Below are positions 9,752 through 35,113 of a stretch of DNA of 35,113 nt, one piece after another. This DNA is from Chrysochromulina tobinii. Taxonomy: Eukaryota. Position numbers and translations under genes: made by a program. The DNA lies in assembly GCA_001275005.1 (NCBI GenBank), contig JWZX01003250.1:1-35113 (forward strand), written 5' to 3'. The notes under the pieces are model-generated. The model did not search any database and had not been told where the DNA came from. It saw nothing but the letters and a program-made list of their open reading frames with translations. Every line of letters starts with the position of its first letter. Within the stretch, counting starts at the first letter, position 1.

Positions 9752-10570
9752 TCAAATCAGCAAGGTGTATGTGCCTCGACGGGGTCGCACGCTTCCTTTT
9801 CCGTTGCTTTGCGCTCCCCGCTGCGGCAGTTCCCACATCCCAAGGCGGTAGAATGTACTGACACGTAGCACGTCGAGCAGCATCTCGACCGGCGTCCACC
9901 ACGTCACCTTGGAGCCAGGCACGTCCTCAAAGGGGACCTGCGCCGAGACGACGCCCAGCCCGAGACGCTGCGCAACGTACAGCATCTCGACGTCGTAAGC
10001 CCATCGCTCAATGTGCAGGTGCGGCAGGGTGAGAGCGGCAGCATCACGCGTCAGCAGCTTGAAGCCGCACTGAGTGTCGGTCACGCCACTCACGGCCATG
10101 GACGCGAGGGCACGGAAGGTGTAGCCCATGAGCTCCCGGTACCACGGCCGGGATGCGCAACGCTCTCCCACAACAATGCTGCAGCCGACACGGTCCATCA
10201 CGTCCTCTAGATCCTGAAGTGCTGTAAGCGGAGTGCTGCCGTCCGCGTCCATGAGGAGGATGCGCTCGCCCGCGGCGAAGCACGCACCCGCCGCGAGTGC
10301 TGCTCCCTTACCACAATTCCTCGGCGAGCGCACGACGCGTAGACGATGCGGCTCGTCTTCACGCAGGCTGCTCAATGCTGCTGCCGTCTCGTCGGTGCTG
10401 CCATCGTCCACCACAATCACCTCCCAGTCTCGCGCTTGCGTGCGCAAGTAGAGGAGCGACGCTGCGAGAGGCTTCGGCAGGCGCTCGCGCTCGTTAAACG
10501 CCGGAATCACTACCGACAGCGATGGCGTGCGAGCGATCGTGGCGCTGGCAAAATGGAGCACTTCGAGCAT
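9752..10570 (-). CDS. ALG5: Dolichyl-phosphate beta-glucosyltransferase-like GT2 glycosyltransferase
   Basis: Motifs SVVIPAFNE.ERL, VIVVDDGSTD, N.GKGAA, LLMDADG, DTQCGFKL and ERWAYDVEML match the DPG synthase subfamily of GT2. Confidence 0.85.
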   Translation of the reverse strand: MLEVLHFASATIARTPSLSVVIPAFNERERLPKPLAASLLYLRTQARDWEVIVVDDGSTDETAAALSSLREDEPHRLRVVRSPRNCGKGAALAAGACFAAGERILLMDADGSTPLTALQDLEDVMDRVGCSIVVGERCASRPWYRELMGYTFRALASMAVSGVTDTQCGFKLLTRDAAALTLPHLHIERWAYDVEMLYVAQRLGLGVVSAQVPFEDVPGSKVTWWTPVEMLLDVLRVSTFYRLGMWELPQRGAQSNGKGSVRPRRGTYTLLI

Positions 10571-11238: not shown

Positions 11239-11814
11239 ATGCTGTTGGCCATGTCGATCCTCTCTGCCAGCAGCGCCCTGCATGTGTTACCGAAAACCGG
11301 AGGTACTTTTGTGCGAGGCACGGACGCCCTGATGTGTCCGAAGGCGCACGGAACCACAGCGAACGCTGTCGCACCGCGAATTCGGTGGGGCTGTGATCGA
11401 GGGCTCGCCGACTGGTGCTGCTGCTTCAACCGCCACATGGCTGAGCCCGGAGGGTACTGGAAAACAGTGCAGTTCCTGAGCGATATCAGCAGCAGCTCAA
11501 CGCCAGTTATCTTCTACGATTCAGTCTCGCAACTTCCTCTGTTTGTGGCACCAGTGAACCGATCACTCACTGCGTTTCTCAAGGAGACCGAAGAGCACGG
11601 GTGGCCGTCCTTTCGGGACGATGAGGTTGTGTGGGAGAATGTGCGTATACTGCCCGATGGGGAGACCGTTTCAGTCGGTGGCACCCACCTCGGCCATCTC
11701 ATTCCCGACGAGACTGGCCGGCCGCGGTATTGTATCAACCTTGTTTGTGTTGCTGGCCTGCCACGCCCGGCGTTGAGCGAGGATGCCTTCCGCCACGCGT
11801 TGCGAGGGTTGTGA
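11239..11814 (+). CDS. Methionine sulfoxide reductase B (MsrB/SelR)-fold protein with N-terminal signal peptide
   Basis: HGWPSF, HLGH and RYCIN motifs of MsrB. Hydrophobic N-terminus MLLAMSILSASSA. No CxxC zinc pairs. Confidence 0.75.
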   Translation: MLLAMSILSASSALHVLPKTGGTFVRGTDALMCPKAHGTTANAVAPRIRWGCDRGLADWCCCFNRHMAEPGGYWKTVQFLSDISSSSTPVIFYDSVSQLPLFVAPVNRSLTAFLKETEEHGWPSFRDDEVVWENVRILPDGETVSVGGTHLGHLIPDETGRPRYCINLVCVAGLPRPALSEDAFRHALRGL

Positions 11815-13972: not shown

Positions 13973-16900
13973 TTAGTACGGCGGAGGATAGTAGTCTGAT
14001 CGCCCCATCTGCCTCGCCAGGCGTCGTTCCTCCGCCCCCATGAACCTGGGATCCATCTGCATGGTCTGCATGGGCGCCCCCGGCATGTTACGCATGACGT
14101 AATTCCCACGCGCCGACGGGACGGGTGCTGTCGGAACAGCCGCGTTCCCGTAGAGGCGCGCCCCAGCCTGTCTCTGCATCATCAATGGGTTCTGCATGCC
14201 CGGCGCAACGCCCGGCGTGCCCATCGGCATGCCCGGCACGCCCGGCAGCACGTAATTGCGCATCATCGGACCCCTGGAATTGGGCATCATCGGGTCATAA
14301 TTCCCCTGCGAGCCGCGAAGATAGTTACCCATGGGCACGCCGTACATAGTGCGCGCCTCGCGACGCGCATCGGCACCTCGTAACTCAAGGGCAGCAGAGG
14401 CACGAGCAGGCGCCGCAGCCGTCGCAGTAGTTGCCTGGCGCAGCTCCTTGGAGATGGGCTGCGGCGGGAAGTTGTAGCGCAGTGGTCGACCGTCAGCCAT
14501 CCGCGCCGCGCGCCGAGCGTCTGCTCCCCTCAGATCTGCATTCGGCTCGGCGCCAACGGAACCCGCCGCGCCTGCCGCAGCCGCACTCCTGGCCTGCCTC
14601 TGCATCTGCGTCAGCGTGGTGTGAACGGACGTCGAGGGGGCGGACCTGGTGGGGGCAACAAAGCTTGACCTCCCGACGGGCGTCGGCATGCGCAGACCAC
14701 CGCCAGCAGCGGCCATGCGCGCCTCCCTCCTCGCGTCCGCACCCTTTGCCTCCTCCATCGGCTCCGCCGCCGCGGCGGCGACGCTTGCAGCCGGAGCCAC
14801 TTGCATGGGTGTGCGGGCGCCGCCGCCATTGCTCCGTAGTGCTCCCCGTAGGATCGCTCGCGCCCCCGTCAGCCGTGCTCGCTGCTGCTCGACTTCGAGG
14901 CGTGTCGAGACCGCGTCGGCTTCGGTCAAACCCACGGCCTCGGTCAATCCCTCGCTCGTCCAGTCCTTCACTCGCCCGAGGCGCTGGGCGCCTGTGAGCA
15001 TCGTCTGCATCACCTCCGCCACCGCGATGAGGCTCGAGGTGGTCAACTCGGCGCGCCCGTACCCAGCCGTCTCGGCAGCCGCCATGGCCACCTGCATCAC
15101 ATCGACAGTCGCAAAGGCCAACTCGGACGCCAGCTCAGCGCCCACGCGCGCGGCTTGGTTCTTCGACTTGGCCGCTCGTAGCAGCGCCGGCACGACCGAG
15201 TCCTGCATCATGGAGGACGTCGCCGACGCCGTCTCGAGCGCTTGGAGTGCCTCACTCACGGCAGAGGGCGAGGTTCCGCTTTGGCCCATGGCGCTTCTGC
15301 TCTGCATGTCGGCAGCAAGCTTGTGGGCGGCCTCGCCCACGCCCTTGCCCGCGGCGACGGTGGCCGCCTGCAGCAGAGGCACCGCCCAAGCCACCAGCTC
15401 CGCTGCTGAGCCCGAGCCACCTGCCGGCTCCGCAAGCGCCCCTCCGCTGGCAGCACCACCCGAGGGCGCCCCGTACGGCCGCCTGAAATCGGCGACTGGC
15501 ACGTCGTAAAAGTTCTTCTGCAGGCCGGGCGAGCGGCCACGCCGCTCCTCGTCAATCGGGGGCGCCGCCATACTGGGCACCACGACGCCCCGGTCGAGAG
15601 CCATTGGCTCCGGGGGCGTGAGACTCTCGGAGACGGACTCGGGCACGTTCTTGGCCATCTCGTCCACAAGCAGCTGCATTGCCCGGACTGACACGAGCGC
15701 TGTCTCGACTGCCACGACGACTTGCCGCTGGCGTGCCTGCGCCACGTCCGACACGGTCGACTCCGCAGGTGAGCCACCATCCGAGGGCATCGGCATCATG
15801 CCCGATTGCATCACCCCGGAGGGCATCATGCCCGGCGGCATCATGCCGTCAAACCCCGACTGCATCGACCCCTGTGACGCCGCCGCGCCCTGTGATGACA
15901 TGGCGCCCTGCATGGGATGCACGTCGGCGCCGCCTGCAGGGGGCCATGCAGATGCCGAGTCCTGCATGGACGGCCACGGGGGCCACACGGGCGGCGGTGC
16001 TGGCTGCCTTTCGGATGGGACGCCGGCCTGCATCGCCTGCTGCATCGCCTGCTGCATCGAGCCTTGCATGACGCCCTGGATGGCCCCCTGAGCCGCCCCC
16101 TGCATGGCCTCGGATCCGTGCATCGCCTCCTGCATGCCGAGGTACTGTACCGTCGCGACGGCCGCGTCCAGCTCCATGCACGCCGCATGCAGCTGCGCCT
16201 CCACATGGGCAGTGTAGTTGTTCTGCTCGTCGTGGATCTCGCGCAATCTCCGGTACTCGATCTGCATGCGCTCGAGCTCCGCGCGCAGTGTGGCCTCTTC
16301 GCGCTCCGACGCCGTCGCCAGCGCCAGCGCCGCTGCCTTTTCGCGCTCCGACGCCGCCGCCTCTGCCGCCGCGGCTGCGGCCGCCTGCGCCCAAGCTGCG
16401 TCGGCCGCGGCCGCCGCCCTCTCTGCTGTGGCCTTGTTTGCCGCGGCCTTCTCAGCGGCCGACCTCTCGGCCGACGCCTTCTCGGCCATCGCCCTCTCGG
16501 CTGCCGCCCTCTCGGCCGACGCCTTCTTCGCCGCCGCCCAGTCGACAGACGCCTTCTCGGCAGCTTGGTTGTTCTTCACGGCAGCCTTCTCCGCTGCAGC
16601 CTTGTTCACGGCCGCCTTCTCGGAGGCTGCCCACTCGGCCGCGAGCTTGTCGGCCGCCGCCCGAGTGTCGGCTGCCCACTTGGACGCCAGCTTGTCAGCT
16701 GCCGCCAGCTGGTCGGCCGCTTTCGCTGCAGCGGCAGCTGCCGCCTTCGAGGCTGCCGCCTTCGAGGCTGCCGCCTTCGCAACCGCGGCCTCCGCGGCAG
16801 CCGCCTTTTCGGCTTCCGCCTTCTCAGCCTTCTCGGCGGCGATCACCCTATCGGCCGCCGATATATTGGCTCCCTCCTCCATCACCTTCTCGGCTGCCGC

Positions 16901-17282
16901 CAAATCGACCACCTTCTTTTCAATCGCCTCGGCTTCAGCCGACTTGGGCCTCACCGCTGCCTGAGCGGTGGCATTGAGCGTCGGGCCCGCAGCGGATGCG
17001 GCGGCGGAGGAGGAGGATACCACAGCGGCAGAGGATGAGGTCATCACATCGAACTTCCGCTTTTTCGAGGCGCCTGACTCCTTCCTGGTGCGTTTCTGCT
17101 CTGAGGACGTCTCAGCGGGGGCCTTTCTCATCAGACGGCACCTCATCAGCCGCAGATACAATCAGCCTCCCGATCCGCGTCACAGCTGCATGGCGTGTGA
17201 CGAGTGCGGGACGAGATGCGCTCGGGAAGCATTGGAGGTAGGACACGCTCGCACCGAGGAGCAGTGCGACGAGGGGCAGCAT
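13973..17282 (-). CDS. Ala-rich coiled-coil/low-complexity protein with a likely signal+transit peptide; one frame break near 17125
   Basis: The 1062-aa frame has AEKAA repeats, a coiled coil and 4 GADARREAR-like motifs. An upstream ATG at 17282 encodes MLPLVALLLGASVSYLQCF.. but is one base out of frame at GAGAAAGGCC (~17122-17129). Confidence 0.7.
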
Positions 17283-21741: not shown

Positions 21742-24733
21742 TCACCTGGTCTGCATCCGATCTCCTATGGCTGCCGCATCACCTCCCGATATTCTGTGAT
21801 GGCTTTCAGGGGCTGGTGCGCTGGTCCTGTAGCCCGTGCAGCGGTTTCTCGAGGAGCACACGTCCCAGCCTTGAAGTGCACAGGCGGTCGTGGCGTCAGC
21901 CAGGGCCTGCTTTAGACCTAAAGCGGCGTCAATGCAAGCAGGGCAGGGCTCGATGATCAGGCCGTCAACGACCTTGGCGAAGAAAGCGAATGATCCACGT
22001 GAGATTCCACCCCCCGCGCTCCTCTCAGCCGACGACGCCACGCACCTGGAGCTTGGGCAACGGCTCGAGTCGATGGGCCGGCGCTCGCGACGGCGCTCGC
22101 GCCACGTCGTCTTCCACAGACGCTGCCACAGTGGGCGCGACTCGCCCCAAGGTGGACGGCGTATGGATGGCCGAGACGGGCGCCGAGACGGGCGCGTACC
22201 CATGCCCGAAGCCTAAACCGAAGCCCTTCGCGCCAAATCCCAGGCCCGTGCCCGGGACAGCGCCAAATCCCAGGCCCGTGCCCGGCGCTGTCGCCGCCAT
22301 CGCCGCCGACGCCGGCGTCGCCGCCAGCGTCGTCGCGGGCGGCGCCTTCGGATGGCAGTGGCCGTCCGCGTCAAGGTACGCGCAGTCCTTGGCTGGTAGC
22401 CGGTAGTGGTCGTGCGTATCGTTGACGACCTTCTCCAGCCAGGCCGCCTCGTACACAGGCGCCGTCTTGGTGCAGCCGCAGAGCAAGTCGGCGGGCTCTT
22501 CGGCGGCCGTGCTCCCATCTTGTAAGGTGACCATCAGCTTCATCCAGAGCGCCGTCCAGCGCGCCGTGGCCTCGGCGGTAGCCTCGACGGCGAGCGCGCT
22601 GAGCACCGCCGCAACGCCCGCCACGTCGCCGGAGGCCCACTTAGCCGTTGCGTTCGCCTCGGCCGCTGCCACTAGAGGGGCGAGGTGCGCCTCGAGCTGC
22701 TCGCGTGCGCGTGTCACGAGCGGCCCCGCGCGGTTGTAGTCCTGGTACACGAGGCGAGCTACCGCCGAGTTGACCCAGAACGCACTGTGTGGCACGAGAA
22801 AGGCCATCGGCCATTGCTCATCGAAGGCGATCGGTGCTCATCCATGGCAATCAGTCGCAATCAGTCGCAATCAGGTGCTCATCCATGGCAATCAGTGACA
22901 AGAACACACGCACCTGTCCCACGAGAACGCCATCATCGAACCAGGCAGGCCATTGGCCACACGGCACGCGAGGCGTGCCGAGCAGTTGGCATCGTCGTAC
23001 GAGCGATGGACGGCGGACGCGCCGCCGTACAGAGGCACCTATTCGGGGCATTCATGTCCTCATGTCAAAGGGACTGCCAATCAATCTCAACACATGCCAA
23101 TCCATATCATGCATACCAATCAACACCAATTGCCAGTCAGGTCCAATTAAATCCAATCAAGTCCTAATCCAGTCCAATCAAGTCCAATCAAATCCAATCA
23201 AATCCAATCCAGTCCTAATCCAGTCCAATTAGGTCCAATCAAGTCCTAATCCAGTCCAATCAAGTCCAATCAAATCCAATCCAGTCCAATCCAGTCCTAA
23301 TCTAGTCCAATTAGGTCCAATCAGGTCCTATTTGACGCACCTTGGGCGCCCACGCGTGGTCATCAGCGCCCCACCAAAGCAGCGCTCGCAACGGCGCGGG
23401 CGTCGCGCGCCCTCGCACGGAGGCCACAAAATGCCACGCCGTGAACTGCGTACCCACGATGCGCTCATTGACGAAGCTCTGGTTCTTGAGCTGCCACGAG
23501 AGGCCGTTGTACCGGTAGGGCGTGTGCTCCGGCCCGGCGGTCACGTCAAGCGCCGGATCGAGCCAGCTGCCCTCGTACTTGGATGAGAGGGCTGCATGCA
23601 CGTCCGCCCGCGTGAGCCCGCGTTTTGGGCGTACCTGTGGGGAACCGGCGCCGTGGTGGGCACTTGCATGCTGGGCGCTCTGCCGGTCGTACACGTACCC
23701 AGAGCGGCATCCGTCGCGTCAGATTGAAGCCCTGGGCGTACCTGTGGGGAGAGGGTGGGGAGAGGGCGCCGTGGTGGGCGCTTGCATGCTGGCATCCGTC
23801 GCGTCAGATTGAAGCCCTGGGCGGCTCACGGCAGGTAATACTCCGCATCGAAGTCGGTTGGCTCCGCCAGCTGCTGGAAGATGTACCAGACGCGAGCCTC
23901 GCAGAAGCGCGCGCCCGTGGGTGTGACCGGATCGTACCTGCAATCCATGGATCAGGGATGTCATCAGGGATGTCATCAGACCGTCAGAGATCTATTGTAG
24001 GTAAACCGCGGCAATCCGCGTACACGTCCGAGAAGGAGAAGGCGGGATCCGTCGGCGACCCCTTCCACAAGCCACGCGCGATCGCGAAGGTGGTCACGTC
24101 GGGCGCCATCATGCACGTGGACGCGTCATCGCAGGGCAGGAAGGCGGAGATGCGAGCCTGGTTCGCGTTGGCGGTGAAGTAGCCCTCGGGCACACGGAGG
24201 GCGACGTAGAGGATCCCCTTGCCGTAGTCACCCTTGCCCAGAAGCTCCATGTACCAGCACTCATCCCCGTCGGAGATCGAGAAGCCCTCCATAGTGGAGT
24301 GGTAGCCGTACGCCTCGCACAGCTCCGCCATGACCGTGATCGCCTCGCGCGCCGTGCGAGCGCGCTGGAGCGTCGTCATGATCAAGCTTCCGTAGTCGAG
24401 AATGGTGCCCTTGCCCGCCGCGAGGCTCCCGATGCCTCCGTGCGTCGTCTCGGCGATGACAACGCCATGTTCGTTGCCATGCGACATCACGTTGTACGTG
24501 TGGTTGGGCTGCGGGATGACGCCGTTCAGAGTCCCTCTTTCAAAGTCCCAGATCTCGCGGACGTCGCCGGGCGAGTGGTCTTGTGCGGGAAAGTGCGTGA
24601 CAAGGCCGTGGCGCTTGGCCGAGTCATCGTTGTCGCCGACGAGTGCCGTGCCGTCGGCGGACGCGCCTCGCGTTACGAGGATGTTCGAGCAGGCGCGAAG
24701 GCACACAGGAAGGAGGAGGAGACGAAGACGCAT
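21742..24733 (-). CDS. Peptidase family C69 (dipeptidase A/secernin-like Ntn hydrolase), secreted; 7 exons
   Basis: Signal peptide then CSNILV (N-terminal Cys nucleophile), ASADG, NEHGVVIAETT, LQRARTAREAI, ANQARI, FCEARVW, AFWV. Exons 24733-24024, 23937-23830, 23741-23699, 23634-23341, 23038-22914, 22784-22046 and 21972-21742 are all phase-consistent. The last exon is less certain; the alternative stop is at 22025. Confidence 0.85.
23060..23330. repeat. (CAATC/CCAAT)n degenerate microsatellite inside intron 4 (23039-23340) of the C69 gene
   Basis: Visible array ccagtccaatcaagtccaatcaaatccaat repeated several times. Confidence 0.9.
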
Positions 24734-24931
24734 TTCAGATCGAGTGTGCTGTGAACGATTCGTCTGTGAACATATGAAAGAATTAACTCGCGACACAAGT
24801 GCTCCCTCTCAATGGACGTGCGCGCGCGCGTCTGTCAAGCCGTTCTGGCGAGGCCGTGCCGTCTCTGGACGCACCACTGACGAACCACTGACGAGGCTGT
24901 CTGACCTACTGTCGTCCTGTCGTCCTGTCGA

Positions 24932-26624
24932 TCATGAGCCGAAGCGGCTCAAAGGATCATGGCTGGCCTCCTCCTCGTTGGCCGGCCCCGCGCGCTGCTT
25001 GATGCGCTTCTGGCGCTCCTCGAGCTCCTCCTGCCTCTTGAGCCGCTTCTCGTCCATGATGTTCGACTGCTTCTTCGCGAGCTTGCGCGAGATCTTCGAT
25101 CGGCCGCGCGTCTTCTTCTTCGACTTCTTCTGGCTCTGGATCTCGGCGAGTCGCTCCTCTCGCGCGGCCTGGAACTCCTTCTGGCGCTCCGTCTGCTGCC
25201 GATCGACCGTGTTCAGCCTCGTCGGGTCCATTTGAATCGTCGCCGGGGGCAGCTTGTCGAGCAGGCTATGCACTTCGCCCTCACGCCGCTGCTTGCGGTT
25301 CTCGTAAGGATTCGCCTCGAAGGAGTCAAAGTTAGGCTCGCCCGCGCCCGGGGCGAGCATCGAGCTGAAGCCCCTCGAGTGTCCTATGCCCAGTACATCT
25401 TCATACGGGCAGAAGCGCTCCGTCGCCGCCGCACAGCCGGGCAAAAGGTGGGTCAGATATGGCCCGTTCGTGCGCTTGGAGAGCCCATCCTTGAAAACCT
25501 GCACGAAAGGGCCGTGGTGATGAGGAAGGCAATCAGCATGCACTCAGAGGCCATCATCGTAATCAGCATGCACTCAGCATGCACTCAGCATGCAATCAGC
25601 ATGCAATCAGCATGCAATCAGCATGCACACTCACCTGCACGGAGGGGCCGTGGACGGCGGCGAGCATCCCGCGATCTGAAATGTCCAGATCGCTCACTGG
25701 GCGAGGCGTGTAGTACTCATGCAGCGGCCGGTACGTCCGAATATCCCACAGCTTGAGCGCGCCGTCGCGCCCCGCCGTCGCCATGTACCGGCCACTCCGG
25801 TCGATTGCGAGCGCACTCACGCCGCCCTTGTGGCAGAGCATCTTGACCGCCGGCTCGCTCAGATTGGGCGTCCACATGGTCACGACCCCGTTGCGGTGCC
25901 CGAGCGCCACGAGAGCGTTCCACGGGTTCAGCCGCATGCAGTCGCACACTCCCAGACGGGTCGGCAAGTCCGCAACGTGCGCGCCCGTCGACACATCCAT
26001 GTACCGTAACCGCCCGGCCGATCCGATCGTCGTGAGAAGCCAATGGTAGCGCAGGAAGCCGAGGCGATGGACCTCGGGTCCATGGTCGCGGAGGCAGTGC
26101 AGCTCGGTCCCCATCCCATCGTAGATGTACAAGTTCTTATGCTGCGCCGCAGCGAACATGGTGTGGTCTCTCAAGAAGCAGACGTCTCGCACCGTCTCCC
26201 TCACATGCAGCTCACGTGTGATCTTGCACCCCTCCCAGTCGACGAGCGCGATGTGGCCCTTGTGCCCGCCCAGCAGCAGGTGGCGCCCATTTGCGGTGTA
26301 CGTCGCACGGTACGGCCCAAAGCGATCGAGCTTCATGTCGTATGCCTTTCTCTGCGTTTGCTGATCCGCGGCTTGCGCAATGGCACGCTGCGAGATCCGC
26401 GCCGTGCGCTCCATCTCTCCTTCGGTCTCAAGCATGCCCGGCTCAGATGGAAGCAGCAGCTCCGATTGCGCCGCGCTTCGCGCAGCTTGTGCCATCTTCT
26501 TCTCGTCGCGCTTGATTGCCAACTTTAGCCGATGCTTCACCACGCCCTTGGACTTGTTGGCCTGCCCACGCTCATACTTCTTGACGGCAGAAGGTTCGGT
26601 GTTGCCGCGGTTGCGCTTTCCCAT
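24932..26624 (-). CDS. UTP7: U3 snoRNA-associated protein 7 / WDR46 (BING4), WD40 + BING4CT; 2 exons (26624-25635, 25498-24932)
   Basis: ELLLPSEPGMLETEGEMERT, GPYRATYTANGRHLLLGGHKGH, FLRYHWLL, LGHRNGVVTMWTP, FCPYEDVLGIGHS.GFSS...PGAGEPNFDSFEANPYEN.KQRREGEV..LLDKL. Phase-0 intron at 25634-25499. Confidence 0.93.
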
Positions 26625-26925
26625 TTCAAGAGTAGCACTATCGGAGTGCCTACGTTAGGACGCTCACCGGCTCGTCCGTCGCAAAACGCTGTGGCGACGT
26701 CTCCGTCCGAGCCCCGAAGCGCCGTCTCGGGCGTTCAGTTTCCGCAAAGTCTTTTTTTGAATTGACGTGCGACTCACCAGCGTCACAGGAAAGTACACAC
26801 CGAGCAGAGATAGTGCAGCCTCGCTCAGAGTTCCCCGGGGTGTAGCCCGGGGTCGGGTGTTTTGACAGCCTCGCCCGCGTCGCCCCGAGCCGTGCCCGAG
26901 CCGACGCGGACACGTGGCGAATCTC

Positions 26926-28985
26926 CTAATCGTCAGAATCAGATGCCAGAAAGTTCATGGGGTCCAAATCAGGCTCGTTCCAGCCTTCTCCCACAGGCCC
27001 TCGTGACGATGGGCGAGGCGTGGTTTGCTTCGAGGCCATACGAGCTGCCCGAAAGGATTCCCCATCAGCCCGGGACGACGCCCGAACCGATTCCCCATCA
27101 GCAGCCCGCGCCGTGGCGCGACCGCGGCCAGCCCCGCGACCTCGAGCGGGCGCCGTCCCGGGCGTCGTCCTCGTCGCGCCGCCGCGTCGAAGCGAGCGTC
27201 CGCCGGCGCTCGTGGAGCCGCCTCCATCCTTGGCACCGCCGCCGCCGCCGCGCCGCGCGCCCGTGGTGATCTCGGCGATCTCGCCGCCCTTCGATCATCA
27301 TCTGGTGCAACGGCACGCCCAACGCTTTAGCAAGTTTCGTCACGACGAATGCCTTATTCTGCGGCACGACCGAGAGCACGGTGCCCGGCGCGCCCGCGCG
27401 CCCGCACCGGCCGGCGCGGTGGACGTAGTGGCTCACGTCGGTCGGAAGTTCGAGGTTGACGACGTGGGTGAGTCCAGGCAGGTCGAGCCCTCGAGCCCCC
27501 ATCTCGGTCGTCACAGCCATCCGACACCGGCCGTCGAGGAGCTTCCGCATCACCTCCACTCGCTCCTCACGCTCTTGGTCGCCGTAGAGAGGCTCGGCGG
27601 GGATCCCATACGAATCCCACAGCTTCTCACACACGATCTTGACGCGGTGCGGCGAGTTGACGAATAGCAAGCACTTTGGGGCCGGCTGGCTGTGGTACAG
27701 CGACTTCATCGTCTCGAGCACCTGATGAGGGAGGCTCTCAGACTCAATCATTGGCACTCAGACTCAATCAGAGGCCATCAGAGGCAATCCTCGTCCGAAG
27801 CCTGATGAGGAAGGCAATCAGAGGCAATCAGAGGCAATCATTGGCACTCAGACTCAATCATAGGCAATCAGAGGCAATCATTGGCACCCGGACTCAATCA
27901 GAGGCCATCGGAGGCAATCCTCGTCCGAAACCTGATGAAGGAGGCAATCATCTGCACTCAGAGGCCATCATCGTCTCGAGCACACCTTGCGCTCCTCGAC
28001 GACGCACAGGCCGTGGGTGATGAGGAAGGCAATCAGCATGCACGCAGCATGTAATCAGCATGCACTCAGCACACACCTTGCGCTCCTCGACGACGCACAG
28101 GCCGTGGGTGATACCCTCGGGCAGCTGGGCCGCAGCGTCACTTGCGACGCCCGCGGCCGGGAGCAGACGTACGAGCATCGGCTTGCGCAGCAGCTGCGTG
28201 GCCGCGCGCCGCACCGCCGCCGTGTCCGCCGTCGCCGACGCAAAGATGAGTTGCAGAGGACGTCCGTCTTGCGCGGACTCGATCAGGCGAAGGGTAGGAT
28301 CCAGATGCGGAGGGCGGAGGGCGTCGTCGACCTCGTCGATCACGATGTGGCGCACGCGCTGAAGCTTGAGCTTCTGCCACTCGAAGGCGAGGTCATTCAC
28401 GCGGCCGGGCGTGCCCACGATCAGCTGGGGCCGATTCTTCTTGATCTTCTCGAGCTGGTTGTTGGGGTTGGCGCCTCCGACCACAGCCGCCACGCCCAGC
28501 CCGGTGCCCGCGAGCGCGAGCTCGGCCACGCGCGCAATCTGAAAGGCGAGCTCGCGCGACTGGCACAGCACAAGCGCCTGCGGCTCGCGGCTCGACGCGT
28601 CGAGCAACTCAAACAGCGGCAGCAAGAAGGCGAGCGTCTTGCCTGAGCCCGTCCACGCGTGGATGATGGCATCGCGGCCGGACGAGATCGGCCCAAAGGT
28701 GGCGCGCTGCAGCGCGTTGGGCGCCGTGATGTTGGCCGCGGCCAGATTGGCAGCCACGCCCGGCACCGACACGCCGAGCGCCTCGAAGCTCATCGCGCCC
28801 TCCGTTCGAGCCGCGTCTGTCCGCACCTCGAGCCGCTCCATGTCGCCAGAAGGCGCGTCCTCTGCGAGCGGTGCGACGGCCCGGGGAGAAGCGTGCCGTG
28901 CAGCCTGCGCGTGCGACGGCGTTTGTCCAAGGCGTAGGGCAGAGGCGGACGCGACAAGTAAGACCAGCGAGTGGACGAAGAGCAT
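26926..28985 (-). CDS. DEAD-box RNA helicase (DEVD variant) with signal/transit peptide, probably organellar; exons 28985-28077 and 27721-26926 with a 1-nt frame break near 27288
   Basis: Q motif PNALQ, AWTGSGKT, SRELAFQ, TPGR, DEVD, SAT, ARGLD, YVHRAGRCGRAG. Leader MLFVHSLVLLVASASAL. As assembled the frame ends at 27098; removing one G at 27287-27289 gives EGGEIAEIT.. open to a TAG at 26926. Confidence 0.88.
27722..28076 (-). other. Composite 355-nt intron containing copies of both flanking exon ends and three CCTCATCAG-type acceptor cassettes
   Basis: 27986-28021 is identical to exon 28077-28112 (36 nt). 27968-27983 is identical to exon 27706-27721 (16 nt). Cassettes sit at 27722, 27802 and 27932. 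Confidence 0.85.
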
Positions 28986-29327
28986 TGTCATCAACTCCAC
29001 GTTCGAGAGTCGTTCGAGCCATGTTTCCGAGCTCGCATCTCGAGAAATCCAACGAGACTCAATGCCGTTAAAGTTATCTCGGCGTTCACGTCCGTAACCA
29101 CGAGCGGACGATTCTTTCCTGCGCGGCCGACAGTGCCGCTGGCCGGGCCGCTTTGCAAAGCGAGAGTGCGTCCACGACCATCGATCGACTCGGAGAAGAC
29201 GGCGAGCCTCCACGCCGAGAGGAGCGAGTGCCGCCGCAGCGTCCAACTGCCAGCGACGCCGCACGCTCCAGCCACTGAACCCCAGCACGATGCAGCCGCG
29301 CGCCGCACTCTCCATGGCATAGGCACG

Positions 29328-31219
29328 ATGCTCAGCGACTCGCTCCGCGCTTCGTCGACGTGGCGCTGGCGGCCTGAGAACACAGGCGAAGCCAGCGCGA
29401 CCGTGCCTCTCGCGTGGCTCCAGTCCATCGAGGCGGGCGTGCGCCTGCTCCAGTCCGCCGCAGCACGTGAGAACGAGCTCCAAGTGCAGCTCGCCCAACT
29501 GCGCTTGCGCGCGAACGCGGCGGACGAGGAGCTTGCGCGACGGCAGGCCCAGCTGCACGCGCTCGAGGACGAGCTGGGCTTCGCGGAGGCGCGCGAGGCG
29601 TCCCTGTGTGAACGGCTGCTGCGGGAGGCCGAGGGCAGCGGCATGCGCGTGGGCGCCCATCGCGGCGCTCCCCCTCTCGAGGTGCTGATTCTTCACGAGG
29701 AGGCGGGCGCCGAGGCGGCGGCCGACGAGGACGACCGTGAGTACGACGAGGAGCGCGAGGTGGTACTGGAGGATCACGACGATGAGGAAGAGGCCGACAC
29801 GGACGAGGGAGCGGAGGCAGCGAGCAGCGGAGGCGTCGAGTAGGCGCCTTGCGAGCCTTGCGAGCCTGACGGCGCCTGATTGCCTCGGATGGTCCCTTGA
29901 TCGCGCCTCTGATTGCCTTCCTCATCAGGTACGAGCCCTACGAGCCTTTCTCTGCCGTCTCGCCCGTATCGGTCGGGGGGGATGAAGAGGCGACCATGGC
30001 TTACAAGGCAATCGAGCCGAGCGGGCACGCTGTTCATGGGGGCGGCGACGCGAGCGGCGGCGGCGGCCGCTGCGCCGGAGGAGGAGGAGGAGGAGGAGGC
30101 AGAGGAGGAGGCGGCGGCGCAGGAGGTGGCGGCGGCGACGGCGGCGGCGGAGGGGCCGCCGCAGCGGCGGCGCGATGGCAGCACGGTGGATGGCTGCACG
30201 GCCTAGCGCGCTTCACCGGCCTTGCTGAGGAGGCAAGCAGCGGCAGCGGACGAGGCCATCTGACGCAGGCGCAGCAGCCGACGACGTCGCAGCTCGCCTC
30301 ACCCGGCGCTGCGGGCACGCGCGGGCCAGGGCGCCATGGTGGGCGCATGCCGGAGGGTCCTCCCTGGACGCCCGGTACGACGCCTGGTACGCGGGTGACG
30401 GCGTACGTCCTCGTGCCCGACCTGAGCGCCGCCGAGGCTGGTTCGCTCTGCACGGAGCTGCGTCGCGCTGACCATTCCCTGAGCCTTCGACAACCAGAGG
30501 GAGCGTGGGAGGGCCGTCTGCTCGTCGAGGAGGTGCGATCTCTATTGATCTCCCTTGATTGCCTCTGATGGCGCTCCACCGCGAGGAGGAGCTCGTCGAG
30601 GAGGTGCGATCTCCCTGGACGATCTCGCTGAATGGTTTCTGATTTGCCTCTCTGACTGCCACTCTGGTTGCCTCCACACTCTGGTTGCCTCCCCCTCCTG
30701 ATTGCCTCCCCACTCTGGTTGCCTCCCACTCCGGATTGCCTCCCTCCGCAGGCGACTGAGGCGCAGCTGCGGCGGCTCGTTGAGCATGGGCGCGTCGCCG
30801 GGATCGAGACGCGCCGTCTTGAGCACCATGGGGTGAGCACGGCTACGCCCGTGCCAATGAGACGGCTCGACGCCGCCGCCCACGACGACGCTCATGACGA
30901 CGGGCTGTCCACCAGCCCAAGCCGACCAACAAGACGAAGCCCGCTCGAGGTAGTGTTGCGCAGCGCGTTTGGCTCGTCGGGCGCCGTTTCGGGCGCTGGC
31001 GTCGTGTCGGGCGAGCGCTCCTGCTCCCCGTTCACGGCCGTATTGGCGGCCGACGCACCCGTAGACGCGGCGCACGAGGAGGCGCAGGTGCAGCAGCTGA
31101 GCCAGCAGCGAGCGGTCGCTGCGGAGGCGGCGTACGCCTCTGGACAAGGTGCCGCGATGGCGCTCTTCGGCATGCTCAGAGGTGCGGGGGTGGGCGTACA
31201 AGTGGCGGGAAGCGAGTAG
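29328..31219 (+). CDS. Hypothetical coiled-coil/acidic/Gly-rich protein; 3 exons (29328-29839, 29929-30532, 30752-31219)
   Basis: Three annotated ORF frames are joined in phase by GT-AG introns at 29840-29928 (ending gattgccttcctcatcag) and 30533-30751. Confidence 0.65.
29911..29928 (+). repeat. Shared intron 3' cassette GATTGCCTTCCTCATCAG (introner-like acceptor module)
   Basis: Exact or near-exact copies on the coding strand of four genes: + 29911; - 27722, 27802, 27932, 33463, 33588, 34159, 34606; and lacking the last G at 25518 and 28018. Confidence 0.85.
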
Positions 31220-31572
31220 ACGAGGTAGAATGGACCAGATCCGGCGGGCTTACGGCTTAGAGATCAGCATTGGAGATCAGCTCAAACACATATTAATAGT
31301 TTTAAGCGAAATAAGCCATGACCCACGCAGGGCGATTTTCTACGTTTTCACTGAATACCGCTCGCTGGCTCGCGCAGAACCGCAGTCGCAGCGCGCGCCG
31401 AGCACATCACACATGAGATCCAAGAGCAAAAGGCTTGGAATTATTCGCGCATCATCACCGATCCCGGCAAAATACTGCGTCAAAAAGTGCGTGTAATTCC
31501 TAATTAGCGAGAGATGTGCATCTCACGCACCCGCGCCGTTGCCTACAGGGCATAACTCACCTCACTCGCACG

Positions 31573-32346
31573 ATGGTCAAGGTCACGATGGAGCAGAGGA
31601 AGGCGGCAATTGCAGAGAAGGCGAAGGCGGATAAGGCGGCAAAGTATAAGGCCTTTGCAGACGCAAGCAAGGAGTGCGAGGCAATTCTCAACCATCCAGC
31701 TACCATGGCGGACACTCAAGCGTACATTGAGATGCAGAAGAAAATAGAGAAGGAATCGGCAAGAGCCGAAGAGTTCGAGCTTTTCAAGCTGCGTCTGCAG
31801 AGTGGCGTCTACCCGTACGCCGAGTGGGAGACTGAAGAGGGAAATTATGTGGGTGCGTGCTGCGTAGAGAAGTGGCCATTCTCCGTTCTTCCGTTCTTCA
31901 GCGATCTGCAGTGCTGCAAGCCGGAGTACGTTTGCCACATGAAGCCCTGCTGCTCGTGCAAGTGCAACTGCTGCAAAGATTGCTGCAAGTGCGAGGGCCC
32001 CAGCTGCTACAAGCCCTACGGTTGTGAGCTCCTCGGCCTGCATGTCCACTGCGCAAAGTATCCAGCGTGCCTGTCGGTGAGTGCTGCATCGCAGCACTTT
32101 CGCTCTCCATGATCATGCACCGAGCCCATACGAGCCCAGCGCTGTCCCTGACAAGCACGCTCAGTCAGAGCGCCTTGCCCCTATCCGGATAGCTCAGTAC
32201 TCAGAAATTCCCCTGCTTACATGTACTGATTTGCACCTTGGTGTTGTTCACAGTGCTGCTGCACGGCCGAGGTGATGGTAGACAAGGTCATCTATAAGGC
32301 GACCAACATGAACGTACCAACATCTGCTAAAATTGATCGTGAGTAA
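31573..32346 (+). CDS. Cys-rich small protein with an N-terminal charged helix; 2 exons (31573-32076, 32254-32346)
   Basis: TCG|gtgagt..ttcacag|TGCTGCTGC phase-0 intron. Cys cluster CCKP..CHMKPCCSCKCNCCKDCCKC..C..C..C..C-S-CCC, ending KIDRE*. Confidence 0.7.
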
Positions 32347-32454
32347 AGGACCAAGTTCATGCCAGCCATTCACCGTGCTCGTTCTCGCGGCGAACTTGCT
32401 CTGGTTGGAAGGCTGCCCCCCTCCCCGGCGATGGTGTGTACCATACCGTAAAGC

Positions 32455-32950
32455 CTGGGGTGCGGGTGGGGGGTGTCCTGGGGTCGATGGGCGGGCCGCT
32501 GTCGAATAGCTGTCGAAGAGCATGTGAGGCCGACGGGCGGACCGCGGGGGATATCTGCCATGAAACCTGGTGCGTGCGGGTGGGGGGGATGTCCTGGGGT
32601 CGATGGGCGGGCCGCTGTCGAAGAGCCTGTGTATGCCGACGGGCGGACGTCGGGGATCTACCATACAACAGCTGGAATGATGACGGGTACATGAACATGT
32701 ATGCGTCAGAGAGGGGGCTGAGTGTGGCGCTTCCCAGCAGCCAGCACCGTGGGGCCTGCAACCTGGTGTTCGCCGATGGGGTGTGTTAGGGGTGTGTCCT
32801 CGGGTGATGCGATTGCGAAGAGCCTGTGAGGCCGACGGGCGAACGGCGGGGATCTACCATACACCAGCTGGAATGATGACGGGTACATGAACATGTATGC
32901 GTCAGAGAGCAGAGGCTGAGTGTGGCGCTTCCCAGCACCGTGGGGCCTGT
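32455..32950. repeat. Nested intergenic direct repeats (~130 nt pair plus ~35 nt pair)
   Basis: 32622-32758 closely matches 32819-32949 (core gatctaccataca.cagctggaatgatgacgggtacatgaacatgtatgcgtcagagag). tgtcctggggtcgatgggcgggccgctgtcgaa occurs at ~32474 and ~32590. Confidence 0.85.
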
Positions 32951-33284
32951 GAGCGGTGACGGTCCGTCGTCCGATGAGCGGCCAGGCGAGAGTGCCAGAG
33001 TCGAGCTTCCTGTTCCTCGGTTTACGGTTACTACACTTTCGCACACACCTTTCTCTCGCTCAGAATAACCACAGCGCGGCTGCGTATGCTGTCGCTACGG
33101 CTTTACCTTGACAGATGACACCCAGCTCCCAGCATTATTTGTGCGTCCGGCAAGTAAGCGCAAAGCGGTCGACCAGCCACGCAATGGCCGACAGATAGAT
33201 GGATGACTGGATGCACCATCGGAGCCCAGGCTGCAGGCTCAAAGTGCTCTCAAAGTGCACTCAAAGTGCTCTCAAAGTCGACTC

Positions 33285-34758
33285 TCAAAGCGCCCCGCCC
33301 GGCGCCGTCTTGACGGCCGCAATCACCTGGCGCTTGTACTCGCCCCAGTTGTGCTGCTTCTGGATGCTGCGCTGCACCTTGTCGTTGTCTAGGTAGAACT
33401 TCTCGGCGTACTGTCGCATCAGCTCTTGCGTCCTCTCGTCGAAATGATGGTAGAAGTCATACCTGACGAGTGAGGCCATCAGAGGCCATCAGAGGCCATC
33501 AGAGGCCATCAGAGGCAATCTGGCTTCTTCTCGTCGAAGTGAGGGTAGAAGTCAGACGCTCCAGTCCCTGGTCCTGGACGAGGAGCTCTGATGAGGGAGG
33601 CACTCAGTCGCAATCAGTACCTGGACAGGACGAGCAGCTCGACGCGCGAGGTGGTCACCACCGAAGCCGAGTGAGGTGCCTTTTTAGTGGCTCGCTTCAT
33701 GGCCTCGAGGAGCGCCAACTCTCCAAAATATTGGGGCGCGCGCAGCTGGGCGATCTCGAGCAGCGGCCGCTCGGGCAGCCGGAAGTGTCCTCCGCCAGGC
33801 GAGCCAGCAGCGCTCGACTCGGCGCTTGAGCCAGCCTTTGAAAGCCTTGGGGAACGAGACTGGGACAGGAACGCGTCTGACCTTGGCGTCGTCACGAACG
33901 GCGCTTCGGTGCCCGTCCTGCGACTCTCATCAAGGGCCGAGAAGGTATTGAACTCAGATACACATGAGTAGATCTCCGCTAGATCTCCGCGGCACTCCGA
34001 GGCACTCCAAGGCACTCCGAGGCGATCACCTGTGGCACTCAGCGAGGGCCGAGAAGCCAGATCGCATCTCGTAGGGCGTGTGCACGAGCTGGCTCGCGAG
34101 CTCCTCAGTGAGGCCCAGCCGCATGAGGATACGGCACGTGCCCGAGAGGATGAAGTACCTGATGAGGAAGGCCATCAGAGGTGCACTCAGAGGTGCACTC
34201 AGAGGTGCACTCAGAGGTCGCAGGTGCAACCAACGATCATCAGAGGTGCACTCAGAGATGCATGCAGTGAGAGCTCCACTCAGAGGCATCTGTGGGCACG
34301 CGTTACATATTCTCCGCAATCTCGCCCTGCCGGATGACCGTTGTGTACTTCTCGAAACTGAGGAGGAGCGCAGTCAGTCAGAGTGGCGCACTCAGATGGC
34401 ACTCAGATGGCACTCAGCATCCTCCTCGTGTATACCGCCGCTCGGTGAAGAGCTTGGCGAGGCTGAGCAGCTCGTCGTCGCTATGGTCTTCGAAGAGGAA
34501 CACCTGCTTGAGGAAGGCGACGCGCTGCAATCCCTTCTCATGGTGGTGCTTGGCGCACGCCTTGTCATATTGATCCTTCTCGATGAGGAGCAGCTGGGTG
34601 GGCACCTGATGAGGAAGGTCATCCGTGGTGTGATCATCATGCAATCAAGTGGGCACCTGATCAGGTAGGTCATCCGAGAGGGCCATCAGAACCTATTCAG
34701 GAAGGCCTCCAGCCGCTGCCCAGGAACTGCCCAGGCGCAGCAAGCTGATCCTTCTGGT

Positions 34759-34826
<68 letters not shown>

Positions 34827-35113
34827 TAAGGAGCAGGCGAGCTCAGTGCGTAGGCACGCCTTGGTCACGATCGTTGCCGCGCGAGTGCCTGTGCCGAGGA
34901 GAGCGAGCTCGCCAAACGCGTCGCCAACACTGAGCTTGACCACGCATTCTCCGATCCCCTCTTTGCCACTCTTGAAGTCGTTGACGTACACCTCCACGCA
35001 GCGGATACCCCCCGAGAAGATGATGTAGAAGGTAGAGCCCTCGTCGCCCTGCTTGAACACCTGCTGCCCGGCCCCAAAGTTCTTCAGCGTGAGCGTGCGG
35101 CAAAGCTCAAGGA
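33285..35113 (-). CDS. Cyclic-nucleotide-binding domain protein (tandem CNB domains), 5'-truncated; exons >35113-34860, 34605-34436, 34357-34307, 34158-34030, 33917-33621, 33462-33285
   Basis: VFKQGDEGSTFYIIFSG..GDAFGELALL..TRAATI (CNB-A). VIRQGEIAENMYFILSG..YFGELALL..HSASVV..VELLVLSRYDF (CNB-B). Five phase-consistent introns, the first with a GC donor. Confidence 0.85.
34759..34825. repeat. (CAG/CTG)~22 trinucleotide repeat inside an intron
   Basis: Perfect gca run within intron 34606-34859. Confidence 0.95.

Follow-up and report, generated by a model that had tools for sequence, protein, structure and literature searches.

Many spliced introns of the freshwater alga Chrysochromulina tobinii contain copies, 12-55 nt in length, of the exon that flanks them. 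These introns probably arose through an accident of copy-paste DNA repair, wherein a polymerase copies an existing intron and duplicates the target. New introns are thus likely made by DNA repair copying existing introns, and not by a jumping gene. Where most new spliceosomal introns come from, bursts of transposons aside, is still an open question. To our knowledge, the neointrons generated by break repair usually have no traceable template, and we know of little direct evidence for intron-to-intron copying. The window, that is, the whole stretch of 35,113 nt analysed here (contig JWZX01003250.1), has the following modelled introns:

22785..22913, minus strand: Peptidase C69 intron 5; degenerate upstream-exon copy (12/13) near the 3' end; RNA joint in X14.
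23039..23340, minus strand: Peptidase C69 intron 4, predicted; 10-nt minisatellite array, no exon copy; junction as in NCBI model P0130.
23635..23698, minus strand: Peptidase C69 intron 3; acceptor cassette B; junction repeat of 6 nt; RNA joints in X14 and X16.
23742..23829, minus strand: Peptidase C69 intron 2; GT, then a 33/33 copy of the downstream exon (23791-23823 = 23706-23738), then cassette B.
23938..24023, minus strand: Peptidase C69 intron 1; junction repeat of 5 nt; RNA joints in X13 and X14.
25499..25634, minus strand: UTP7 intron; donor, 11-nt repeats, cassette A minus its G, then a 17/19 copy (25499-25517) of the upstream exon end (25635-25653); RNA joints in 4/4 runs.
27722..28076, minus strand: DEAD-box helicase compound intron; a cassette, copies of the upstream exon (36/36, 27986-28021) and of the downstream exon (16/16, 27968-27983), then further cassettes; RNA joints in X13, X14 and X16.
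29840..29928, plus strand: intron 1 of the uncharacterised gene 29235-31219; downstream copy (14/16), cassette A; RNA joints in X14 and X17.
30533..30751, plus strand: intron 2 of the uncharacterised gene 29235-31219; 23/23 duplication over the donor (30520-30542 = 30591-30613); RNA joints in X13 and X17.
33463..33620, minus strand: predicted intron of the cNMP-binding gene; two cassettes enclose degenerate copies of the upstream (12/13) and downstream (33/39) exons, which follow the mRNA order.
33918..34029, minus strand: predicted intron of the cNMP-binding gene; ends in a 22/27 upstream-exon copy (exonic member of the pair putative); present in strain L073.
34159..34306, minus strand: predicted intron of the cNMP-binding gene; 12-nt repeats, cassette A, no long copy.
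34358..34435, minus strand: predicted intron of the cNMP-binding gene; 11-nt repeats, no long copy.
34606..34859, minus strand: predicted GC-AG intron of the cNMP-binding gene; degenerate copy of the downstream exon (19/24), a run of (CTG)22, cassette A.

The counts given in the first-pass annotation for C69 intron 2, UTP7, DEAD, intron 30533 and the cNMP introns 33918 and 33463 were the same on recount. All six copies are present; introns 29840 and 30533 belong to one gene. The upstream DEAD copy becomes 41/41 once the donor bases are counted, and the cassettes of this intron hold an internal duplication of 130 nt and a short foreign fragment that occurs twice (27790-27799 and 27920-27929). 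Instead of the single acceptor cassette assumed earlier, at least two, along with gene-specific variants, were found. The E. huxleyi genome paper reportedly mentions 10-11-bp intronic repeats.

RNA contigs support eight of the 14 modelled introns. Seven have GT..AG joints, and the eighth, C69 intron 2, is skipped together with its neighbour in one contig (X13). The five cNMP introns and C69 23039-23340 have no spliced joint in the RNA contigs (three joints are hidden, and the cNMP gene is thinly covered); the spliced cNMP reading frame is open. The junctions proposed earlier are thus confirmed in part. Read mappers and gene callers can misplace junctions at such copies, as was observed here with the RNA mapping. 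P0133 is open through four C69 introns but begins inside the first, and is either partly spliced RNA or intron-less DNA.

A second assembly agrees with the window at 99.96% identity over 15,315 nt, and strains that are about 98% identical carry the UTP7 copy (18/19 in strain L063), the cNMP introns and the DEAD copies that lie within the intron. On short-read evidence, the exon copies are not an assembly artefact. It is hardly conceivable that they are such artefacts, or leftovers of recombination between diverged coding alleles, even though all the assemblies are from short reads and DNA unitigs break at the longer repeats. The independent assembly and the wild strains carry copies with substitutions of their own, and RNA splices the copies out. 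Moreover, over 600 sites, the mismatches between copies are 14 silent vs 27 non-silent (frames were picked automatically, and four rows have one stop in the 360-nt context). The copies decay at non-silent sites, and the fossil-allele reading was rejected on this count. As judged from ORF breaks in relatives, the ORFs of these organisms read through the UTP7 and C69 intron positions, in agreement with lineage-specific positions.

The statistics set comprised 27 non-redundant metagenome loci (from 120) and the window, amounting to 271,893 nt; the remaining loci were duplicates, strain or transcript partners (for pairwise alignments only) or motif-poor chance matches. The loci were picked for containing a cassette, so their densities do not stand for genome averages. 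A match to the intron's own 60-nt flank, with a score of at least 12, was found in 15 of 25 transcript-defined introns, five of which rest on L120, a partly spliced contig inferred to be RNA; a 71-nt gap in L078 lacking GT/GC-AG was removed before this count. At the same score, 0 of 448 cross-gene intron/flank pairs and 0 of 25 introns, when compared with their own exon 61-120 nt away, gave a match. The resemblance of introns to their own flanks thus stands against controls. A scan of viral contigs gave 55 single matches at background motif density, which were taken as chance. The junction repeats of 3-6 nt that were noticed earlier exceed the AG|GT background modestly (mean 5.6 vs 3.9 nt; at least 5 nt in 13 of 25 introns vs 33% of controls) and are weak evidence.

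The first-pass annotation saw a candidate intron-birth system in these copies, but not every copy marks a birth. Six of the 15 copies lie at the far end, including those of UTP7, where the copy provides the spliced AG, and C69 intron 2, where it supplies the donor side; these two are of the birth type. The other nine, among them 30533 and DEAD, are mid-intron, and are duplications across an existing splice junction, which is intron growth and not birth. Could growth be the whole story, with old introns lengthened by slippage-type tandem duplication over their splice junctions and no new positions gained? Such a pattern is known in amphioxus (PMC3087553), identical stacked units are common here, and the units that cross a junction (33-70 nt) vary in number from strain to strain. 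Nevertheless, this explanation is very improbable, as it leaves the far-end copies unexplained, along with the positions missing in relatives and a whole-intron polymorphism absent from a sister lineage.

The polymorphism in question was found outside the window, in a PCIF1-like gene. Here, locus L067 carries an insert of 96 nt, bounded by GT..AG and accompanied by a perfect duplication of 19 nt. L117/L127 lack this insert; the two forms are 98.7% identical, and both are intron-bearing DNA. ORF genotyping located the insert in 15 of 24 informative ingroup alleles and in 0 of 17 sister-lineage alleles, so that presence/absence among sister strains is borne out for one intron. Frameshifts or stops occur in eight of the 15 insert-bearing ORFs, which should therefore need splicing, while the L067 allele is 3n and stop-free. 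In its body, the insert agrees at 70/76 positions with an intron that lies 1.2 kb upstream, with a score of 117 as compared with 53 for the best other locus. The resemblance covers these 76 nt only, and the two share TGCAG|GT at the switch point. The insert is likely a new intron, polarised and segregating, with splicing predicted from its sequence. In the roughly 33 kb over which strains were aligned, no other polymorphism of a whole intron was found; deletion between repeats could account for some empty alleles.

Microhomology at joins free of splice constraint is in excess, being 1.34 vs 0.36 nt in one set (n=18, p=0.002) and 1.88 vs 0.39 nt in a second (n=16, p=0.016), although it is short (mean 1-2 nt) and the numbers are small. 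This supports the microhomology-linked insertion suggested earlier. The inserted bodies, formerly described as a shared microsatellite/acceptor filler, are better explained as part of some other intron, in many cases a neighbouring one. The best template lies in the same locus for 20.5 of 46 spacers, against 4.0 expected, and in another locus for 25.5 of 46; this search covered <1% of the genome, and a better template may lie in the other >99%. Later gene conversion could also produce the same-locus bias.

The spread of the cassettes by a non-autonomous mobile element (Rep/HUH, Replitron-like, or target-primed reverse transcription of intron RNA), with the duplications as variable target-site duplications, is unlikely, although the likeliest of the alternatives. 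The 3' ends of cassettes are widely shared, foreign exon fragments trail some of them, and three unrelated genes share a unit of 56 nt; this unit and the other-locus templates are what a mobile element would likewise give. Replitron-1 leaves variable-length duplications, and its fuzzy right ends are carried over from the parental copy; C. tobinii itself yielded one Replitron protein (PMC10288648). Furthermore, Introners with 4-bp TSDs and no TIRs are described in marine Chrysochromulina MAGs (10.1101/2022.06.06.494994 and its PNAS supplement). On the other hand, no pair of fixed termini is seen. The 168 repeat pairs, which include nested and both-strand double counts, comprise 44 of the acceptor type and 30 of the donor type; donor-type inserts have a fixed 5' end and a ragged 3' end, and the acceptor-type inserts the opposite. 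Several unrelated cassette types act alike, and the same-gene template bias also speaks against an element. An element with a single polarity would not give both polarities, nor the products that are not introns, namely the antisense cassette with a 16-nt duplication retained in a poly(A) 3' UTR and the polymorphic fold-back insert with a 20-nt duplication. As stated in the first reading, the bodies are heterogeneous, the duplications vary in length and TIRs are lacking. None of 300 transcript-defined intron pairs reaches a global identity of 70% (best 66%), and the longest exact end complement averages 4.5 vs 4.3 nt in controls (at least 6 nt in 4 of 25 introns vs 10% of controls). The repeat pairs range from 12 to 106 nt, with a median of 26 and a flat distribution from 16 to 50 (the detector has a floor of 12).

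Another proposal is that a break in an intron is patched from the spliced mRNA, that is, RNA- or cDNA-templated repair as an aborted intron loss. In its favour, a copy of the intron's own spliced junction, 16 nt long, is present in five of 31 introns, and the DEAD and cNMP copies follow the order of the mRNA, with 2 additional bases in DEAD and 10 in cNMP. However, two successive DNA events at AG|G would give this order as well. Copies across a different splice junction number 0 of 68 intron/other-junction pairs, a comparison of limited power, since most exons exceed the copies in length. The antisense and fold-back inserts and the new intron position are left unexplained, and the proposal is therefore quite improbable.

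Repair from existing introns, the preferred reading, may proceed as follows. A staggered break or a stalled fork would act as the trigger. The polymerase would leave the exon at a few bases of microhomology, copy 30-150 nt from an intron already present, in many cases a neighbouring one, and rejoin 5-55 nt further back, thereby duplicating the target. The process would be blind to strand and gene structure, and selection would keep exonic insertions only if splicing restores the mRNA exactly. In the UTP7 type, the copied donor would pair with the AG ending the duplicated exon piece; in the C69 type, the GT starting this piece would pair with the copied acceptor. Were such an event to occur at an AG|GT junction already present, a longer intron would result, as may be the case for DEAD and 30533. 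Pol theta, an NHEJ polymerase and a replicative switch are the candidate enzymes. The Pol theta-like end joining proposed earlier agrees with the signatures (microhomology and in-cis templated inserts), as one candidate among these. In ES cells, paired-nick repair yields microhomology-linked tandem duplications with occasional in-cis templated inserts, and cNHEJ also generates tandem duplications (PMC5730883). The process would feed itself without a transposase because each product adds a further template, one with many 10-12-nt repeats that resemble branch points. The chances are about even that such a transposase-free factory, with introns as microhomology repair templates and mostly intragenic hops, built a large share of the introns of this alga.

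In this cultured alga, with its 59-Mb genome, the duplications are of sufficient length for dating, the neighbour template can be traced and alleles segregate in nature; the rate, template distance and enzyme dependence thus become directly measurable. If the proposal is true, such intron families escape Introner pipelines, and it may explain the 'sourceless' intron bursts in haptophytes and other protists. A literature search, outside subscription papers and bioRxiv supplements, returned no description of this intron pattern in haptophytes.

Among known systems, the break-repair neointrons of Daphnia pulex also segregate, repeat the adjacent exon end at the opposite intron end and acquire later internal duplications; their repeats are 4-12 bp (33/90 introns), their bodies AT-rich and convincing sources few (PMC4202315, PMC3443670). 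In C. tobinii, by contrast, repeats of up to 55 nt occur, and matches to the body are found in other introns, frequently neighbouring ones. The Daphnia-type far-end copy is found in six of the 15 cases, against 0/448 controls. The amphioxus 'mirages' likewise have tandem units over a donor or acceptor junction, variable in number, with splicing undisturbed, and were proposed as a route of intron gain; they are known from a few loci, where an existing junction is duplicated (PMC3087553, PMC3902484). They resemble the nine mid-intron copies only, and differ from the far-end copies around an inserted body, the non-local templates and the new intron position.

In the Rogers model of AGGT tandem genomic duplication, too, a duplicated exon piece gives a splice site and splicing restores the mRNA (PMC3443670). 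In C. tobinii, the duplicate gives one site, whereas the other site and the branch point come from the inserted intron piece, so that very short duplications suffice. No intron made wholly of duplicated exon, with both sites from AG|GT, was seen: a non-exon spacer of at least 20 nt was present in every case examined, a spacer being demanded by the repeat-pair detector.

Like the introns studied here, Introners share sequence among many introns, carry one splice site while co-opting the other from the duplication, and occupy lineage-specific positions (10.1101/2022.06.06.494994, PMC12130899). The C. tobinii introns differ in having no end-to-end similar bodies, TIRs or fixed duplication length. 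Recent, lineage-specific positions with presence/absence polymorphism, a further trait of Introners, were observed for one intron and, for others, through the ORF breaks of relatives. C. tobinii was among the genomes screened for Introners, its name appearing, in the text available, only in the genome list of the PNAS supplement of 10.1101/2022.06.06.494994. Lastly, Replitron-1 of Chlamydomonas is a copy-paste element with variable duplications and extra bases from beside the parental copy. The length of Replitron-N1 is about 910 bp; its left end is fixed, and short direct repeats mark its termini (PMC10288648), none of which is seen here. The variable duplication and the fuzzy parental-flank end are found in C. 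tobinii as well, the latter in a myosin intron (L074), where 17 nt from an exon 2.9 kb upstream have hitch-hiked behind the cassette.

Among the Pfam families in the window are peptidase C69, a WD40 protein (UTP7, from the names of its homologues), a DEAD helicase and cNMP-binding domains. With 14 introns modelled, UTP7, DEAD, cNMP and an unnamed gene have open frames, while the C69 product with its modelled introns removed is of 679 aa. RNA contigs and homologues indicate that UTP7 and C69 are two separate genes; the NCBI gene model P0130 (24733-26624) merges UTP7 and the downstream C69 into a single 1,026-aa protein. A 1-nt deletion at 27292, altering the C-terminal frame of DEAD, and a T>A change at 25419 were seen in all RNA runs covering these sites and are probably errors in the window sequence. 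The motifs of the cassette, the shared intron filler and acceptor, are almost absent from the first 22 kb, and cassette introns nearly so from 1-21200.

1-2580, 3258-8819, 13973-17146 and others within 1-21200: intron-poor long ORFs
9752-10570: glycosyltransferase 2, with the next the only Pfam matches among these ORFs
11239-11814: weak SelR match
27722-28076, minus strand: DEAD intron
29235-31219: unnamed gene, no Pfam family match
30533-30751, plus strand: its intron 2
32430-32940: non-coding repeat, 196-nt spacing, 79 nt at 96%, without RNA cover

The first-pass annotation had reported copies of the flanking exon inside introns, and all its counts were reproduced on recount. Its junctions were borne out in part: in four RNA runs, GT..AG joints were found for seven introns, but the cNMP introns and C69 intron 23039-23340 were without splice joints. 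C69 intron 23742-23829 and its neighbour are skipped in one RNA contig, which the aligner placed on the intronic copy. Some RNA-library contigs read through the DEAD and 30533 introns without splicing and may represent intron retention or DNA. A second assembly agrees with the window at 99.96% identity across 15,315 nt, and the sister-strain comparison proposed earlier found the same introns in strains about 98% identical. The UTP7 copy matches at 18/19 in those strains versus 17/19 in the window; it is therefore real and decaying, and that the copies are an artefact is barely conceivable.

A scan for the acceptor cassette retrieved 120 metagenome loci. The statistics set comprised 27 non-redundant motif-rich loci and the window (271,893 nt), and spliced contigs in the locus set defined 17 further introns, in two genes. 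Because loci were picked for the cassette, copy frequencies are not a genome average. Of 25 transcript-defined introns, 15 score at least 12 against their own 60-nt flanks, a score reached by none of 448 cross-gene pairs and in 0/25 comparisons with own exon 61-120 nt away. Around the cassette spacers, an automatic detector counted 168 repeat pairs, a figure that takes in nested pairs and double counts; their median length is 26 nt, and 63 match perfectly and 16 at below 90%. Mismatches between copy and exon (14 silent, 27 non-silent) are as expected for neutral decay. Short junction repeats, also claimed earlier, do exceed background, but only slightly. Among the 15 copies, nine are mid-intron and six lie at the far intron end, supplying a splice site. 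The core of the earlier interpretation, intron birth, holds up, although some 60% of the long copies reflect growth of existing introns instead. Growth as the sole process is quite improbable.

The intron positions in UTP7 and C69 are lineage-specific, as shown indirectly by the ORFs of relatives, assuming contiguous ORF calls on DNA. ORFs of UTP7 relatives are interrupted elsewhere, near residues 245, 250, 267, 274, 302, 313, 375 and 382; one relative, represented by two ORFs (longest contig 6,857 nt for both), breaks at 313 and reads through 330. For C69, all five intron positions are read through in 18 of 22 aligned non-self relatives, of which seven sit on contigs of 4.8-345 kb. Among the UTP7 homologues P0008, P0019 and P0021-P0026 of related haptophytes, the break differs in nearly every lineage, a hint that introns were gained independently and in large numbers throughout the group.

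Strains were aligned DNA to DNA in 16 comparisons totalling about 33 kb, and one whole-intron difference emerged. At locus L067, the final exon of a PCIF1-like gene carries a 96-nt GT..AG insert with a perfect 19-nt duplication at its flanks; L117 and L127 lack the insert. The closest match to its 77-nt body, well ahead of any other locus examined, is an intron 1.2 kb upstream (70/76); TGCAG precedes both donors, and the upstream intron has its own perfect 32-nt flanking duplication. Of 51 database ORFs across the site, 10 were uninformative; in the ingroup the insert is present in 15 and missing from 9, and in the sister lineage (91-94% protein identity) it is present in 0 and missing from 17. 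Two motifs served to assign ORFs to lineages, and two of the ORFs appear to be recombinants. Among the 15 insert alleles, eight have a frameshift or stop, and the insert is therefore presumably spliced. Intron gain is the favoured explanation, though part of the empty ingroup alleles could be losses mediated by repeats. In P0220 (624-nt contig), the ORF returns to an upstream exon of the same gene after the new intron body; either the contig is chimeric, or the same switching produced a longer duplication.

It is rather likely that these introns arise by break or fork repair that copies pieces of other introns and duplicates the target. A staggered break or stalled fork within an exon would prime on another intron through microhomology of 1-7 nt, most often AG|GT. 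A donor-side or acceptor-side intron piece, rich in branch-point-like repeats, would be copied before a return upstream. A duplicate with AG at its end or GT at its start would let splicing restore the mRNA, and an intron would be born; repetition at an existing junction would stack units and lengthen the intron, yielding the DEAD and 30533 structures and the strain differences in unit number. Such differences in stacked units are indeed seen. Exon copy and cassette overlap, at joins that splicing leaves unconstrained, by 1.34 versus 0.36 nt (n=18, p=0.002) and, in a second set, by 1.88 versus 0.39 nt (n=16, p=0.016). The best match of an insert lies in its own locus in 20.5 of 46 cases, with 4.0 expected. 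A myosin intron holds, behind the cassette, a 17-nt piece of an exon that lies 2.9 kb upstream, and a 56-nt unit is common to three unrelated genes; templates can therefore be near or far. A poly(A) 3' UTR retains a cassette in antisense, with a 16-nt duplication, and a polymorphic fold-back insert with a 20-nt duplication lies within an intron, so the mutation occurs without intron creation.

RNA-templated repair is improbable, though slightly less so than growth alone; no copy crosses a second junction (0/68 pairs), while 5 of 31 introns contain their own spliced junction. That a mobile element spreads the cassettes is unlikely, less so than either. Neither TIRs nor any intron pair above 70% identity occurred in the transcript-defined set. 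Replitron-1 likewise leaves duplications of variable length and has fuzzy ends, and the same paper reports one Replitron protein from C. tobinii (PMC10288648), which keeps the mobile element alive. That the copying from intron to intron is self-feeding and transposase-free is about an even call.

Three further structures were observed. A spliced intron of a myosin-like gene (L074, 6767-6907) has (CCCTAA)2 and a partial unit adjoining a 24/25 upstream-exon copy, which may be either a branch-point repeat or telomere-like sequence taken up where the DNA broke. GC donors occur where the duplicated exon piece begins GC (L074 about 7085, transcript-defined; window 34859). At L087, about 1125-1230, opposite-strand cassettes face each other, separated by a 33-nt piece and accompanied by duplications of 14 and 24 nt; antisense insertion or overlapping genes may account for this.

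The pattern was found described nowhere in the literature searched, though subscription papers may contain a description. In the accessible part of the C. tobinii genome paper, introns come up a single time and the pattern is absent, and the accessible parts of PMC8379373, PMC13746701 and PMC12130899 hold no description of it. The introns fail Introner tests; in the available text of a 2022 Introner survey, C. tobinii was screened and is not among the positives listed, which include marine Chrysochromulina MAGs (10.1101/2022.06.06.494994). Paired-nick repair is described as giving duplications and occasional in-cis inserts (PMC5730883). The C. tobinii pattern works like break-repair gain of the Daphnia type, whose repeats are of 4-12 bp (PMC4202315), combined with intron-to-intron copying and with the mirages of amphioxus (PMC3087553, PMC3902484).
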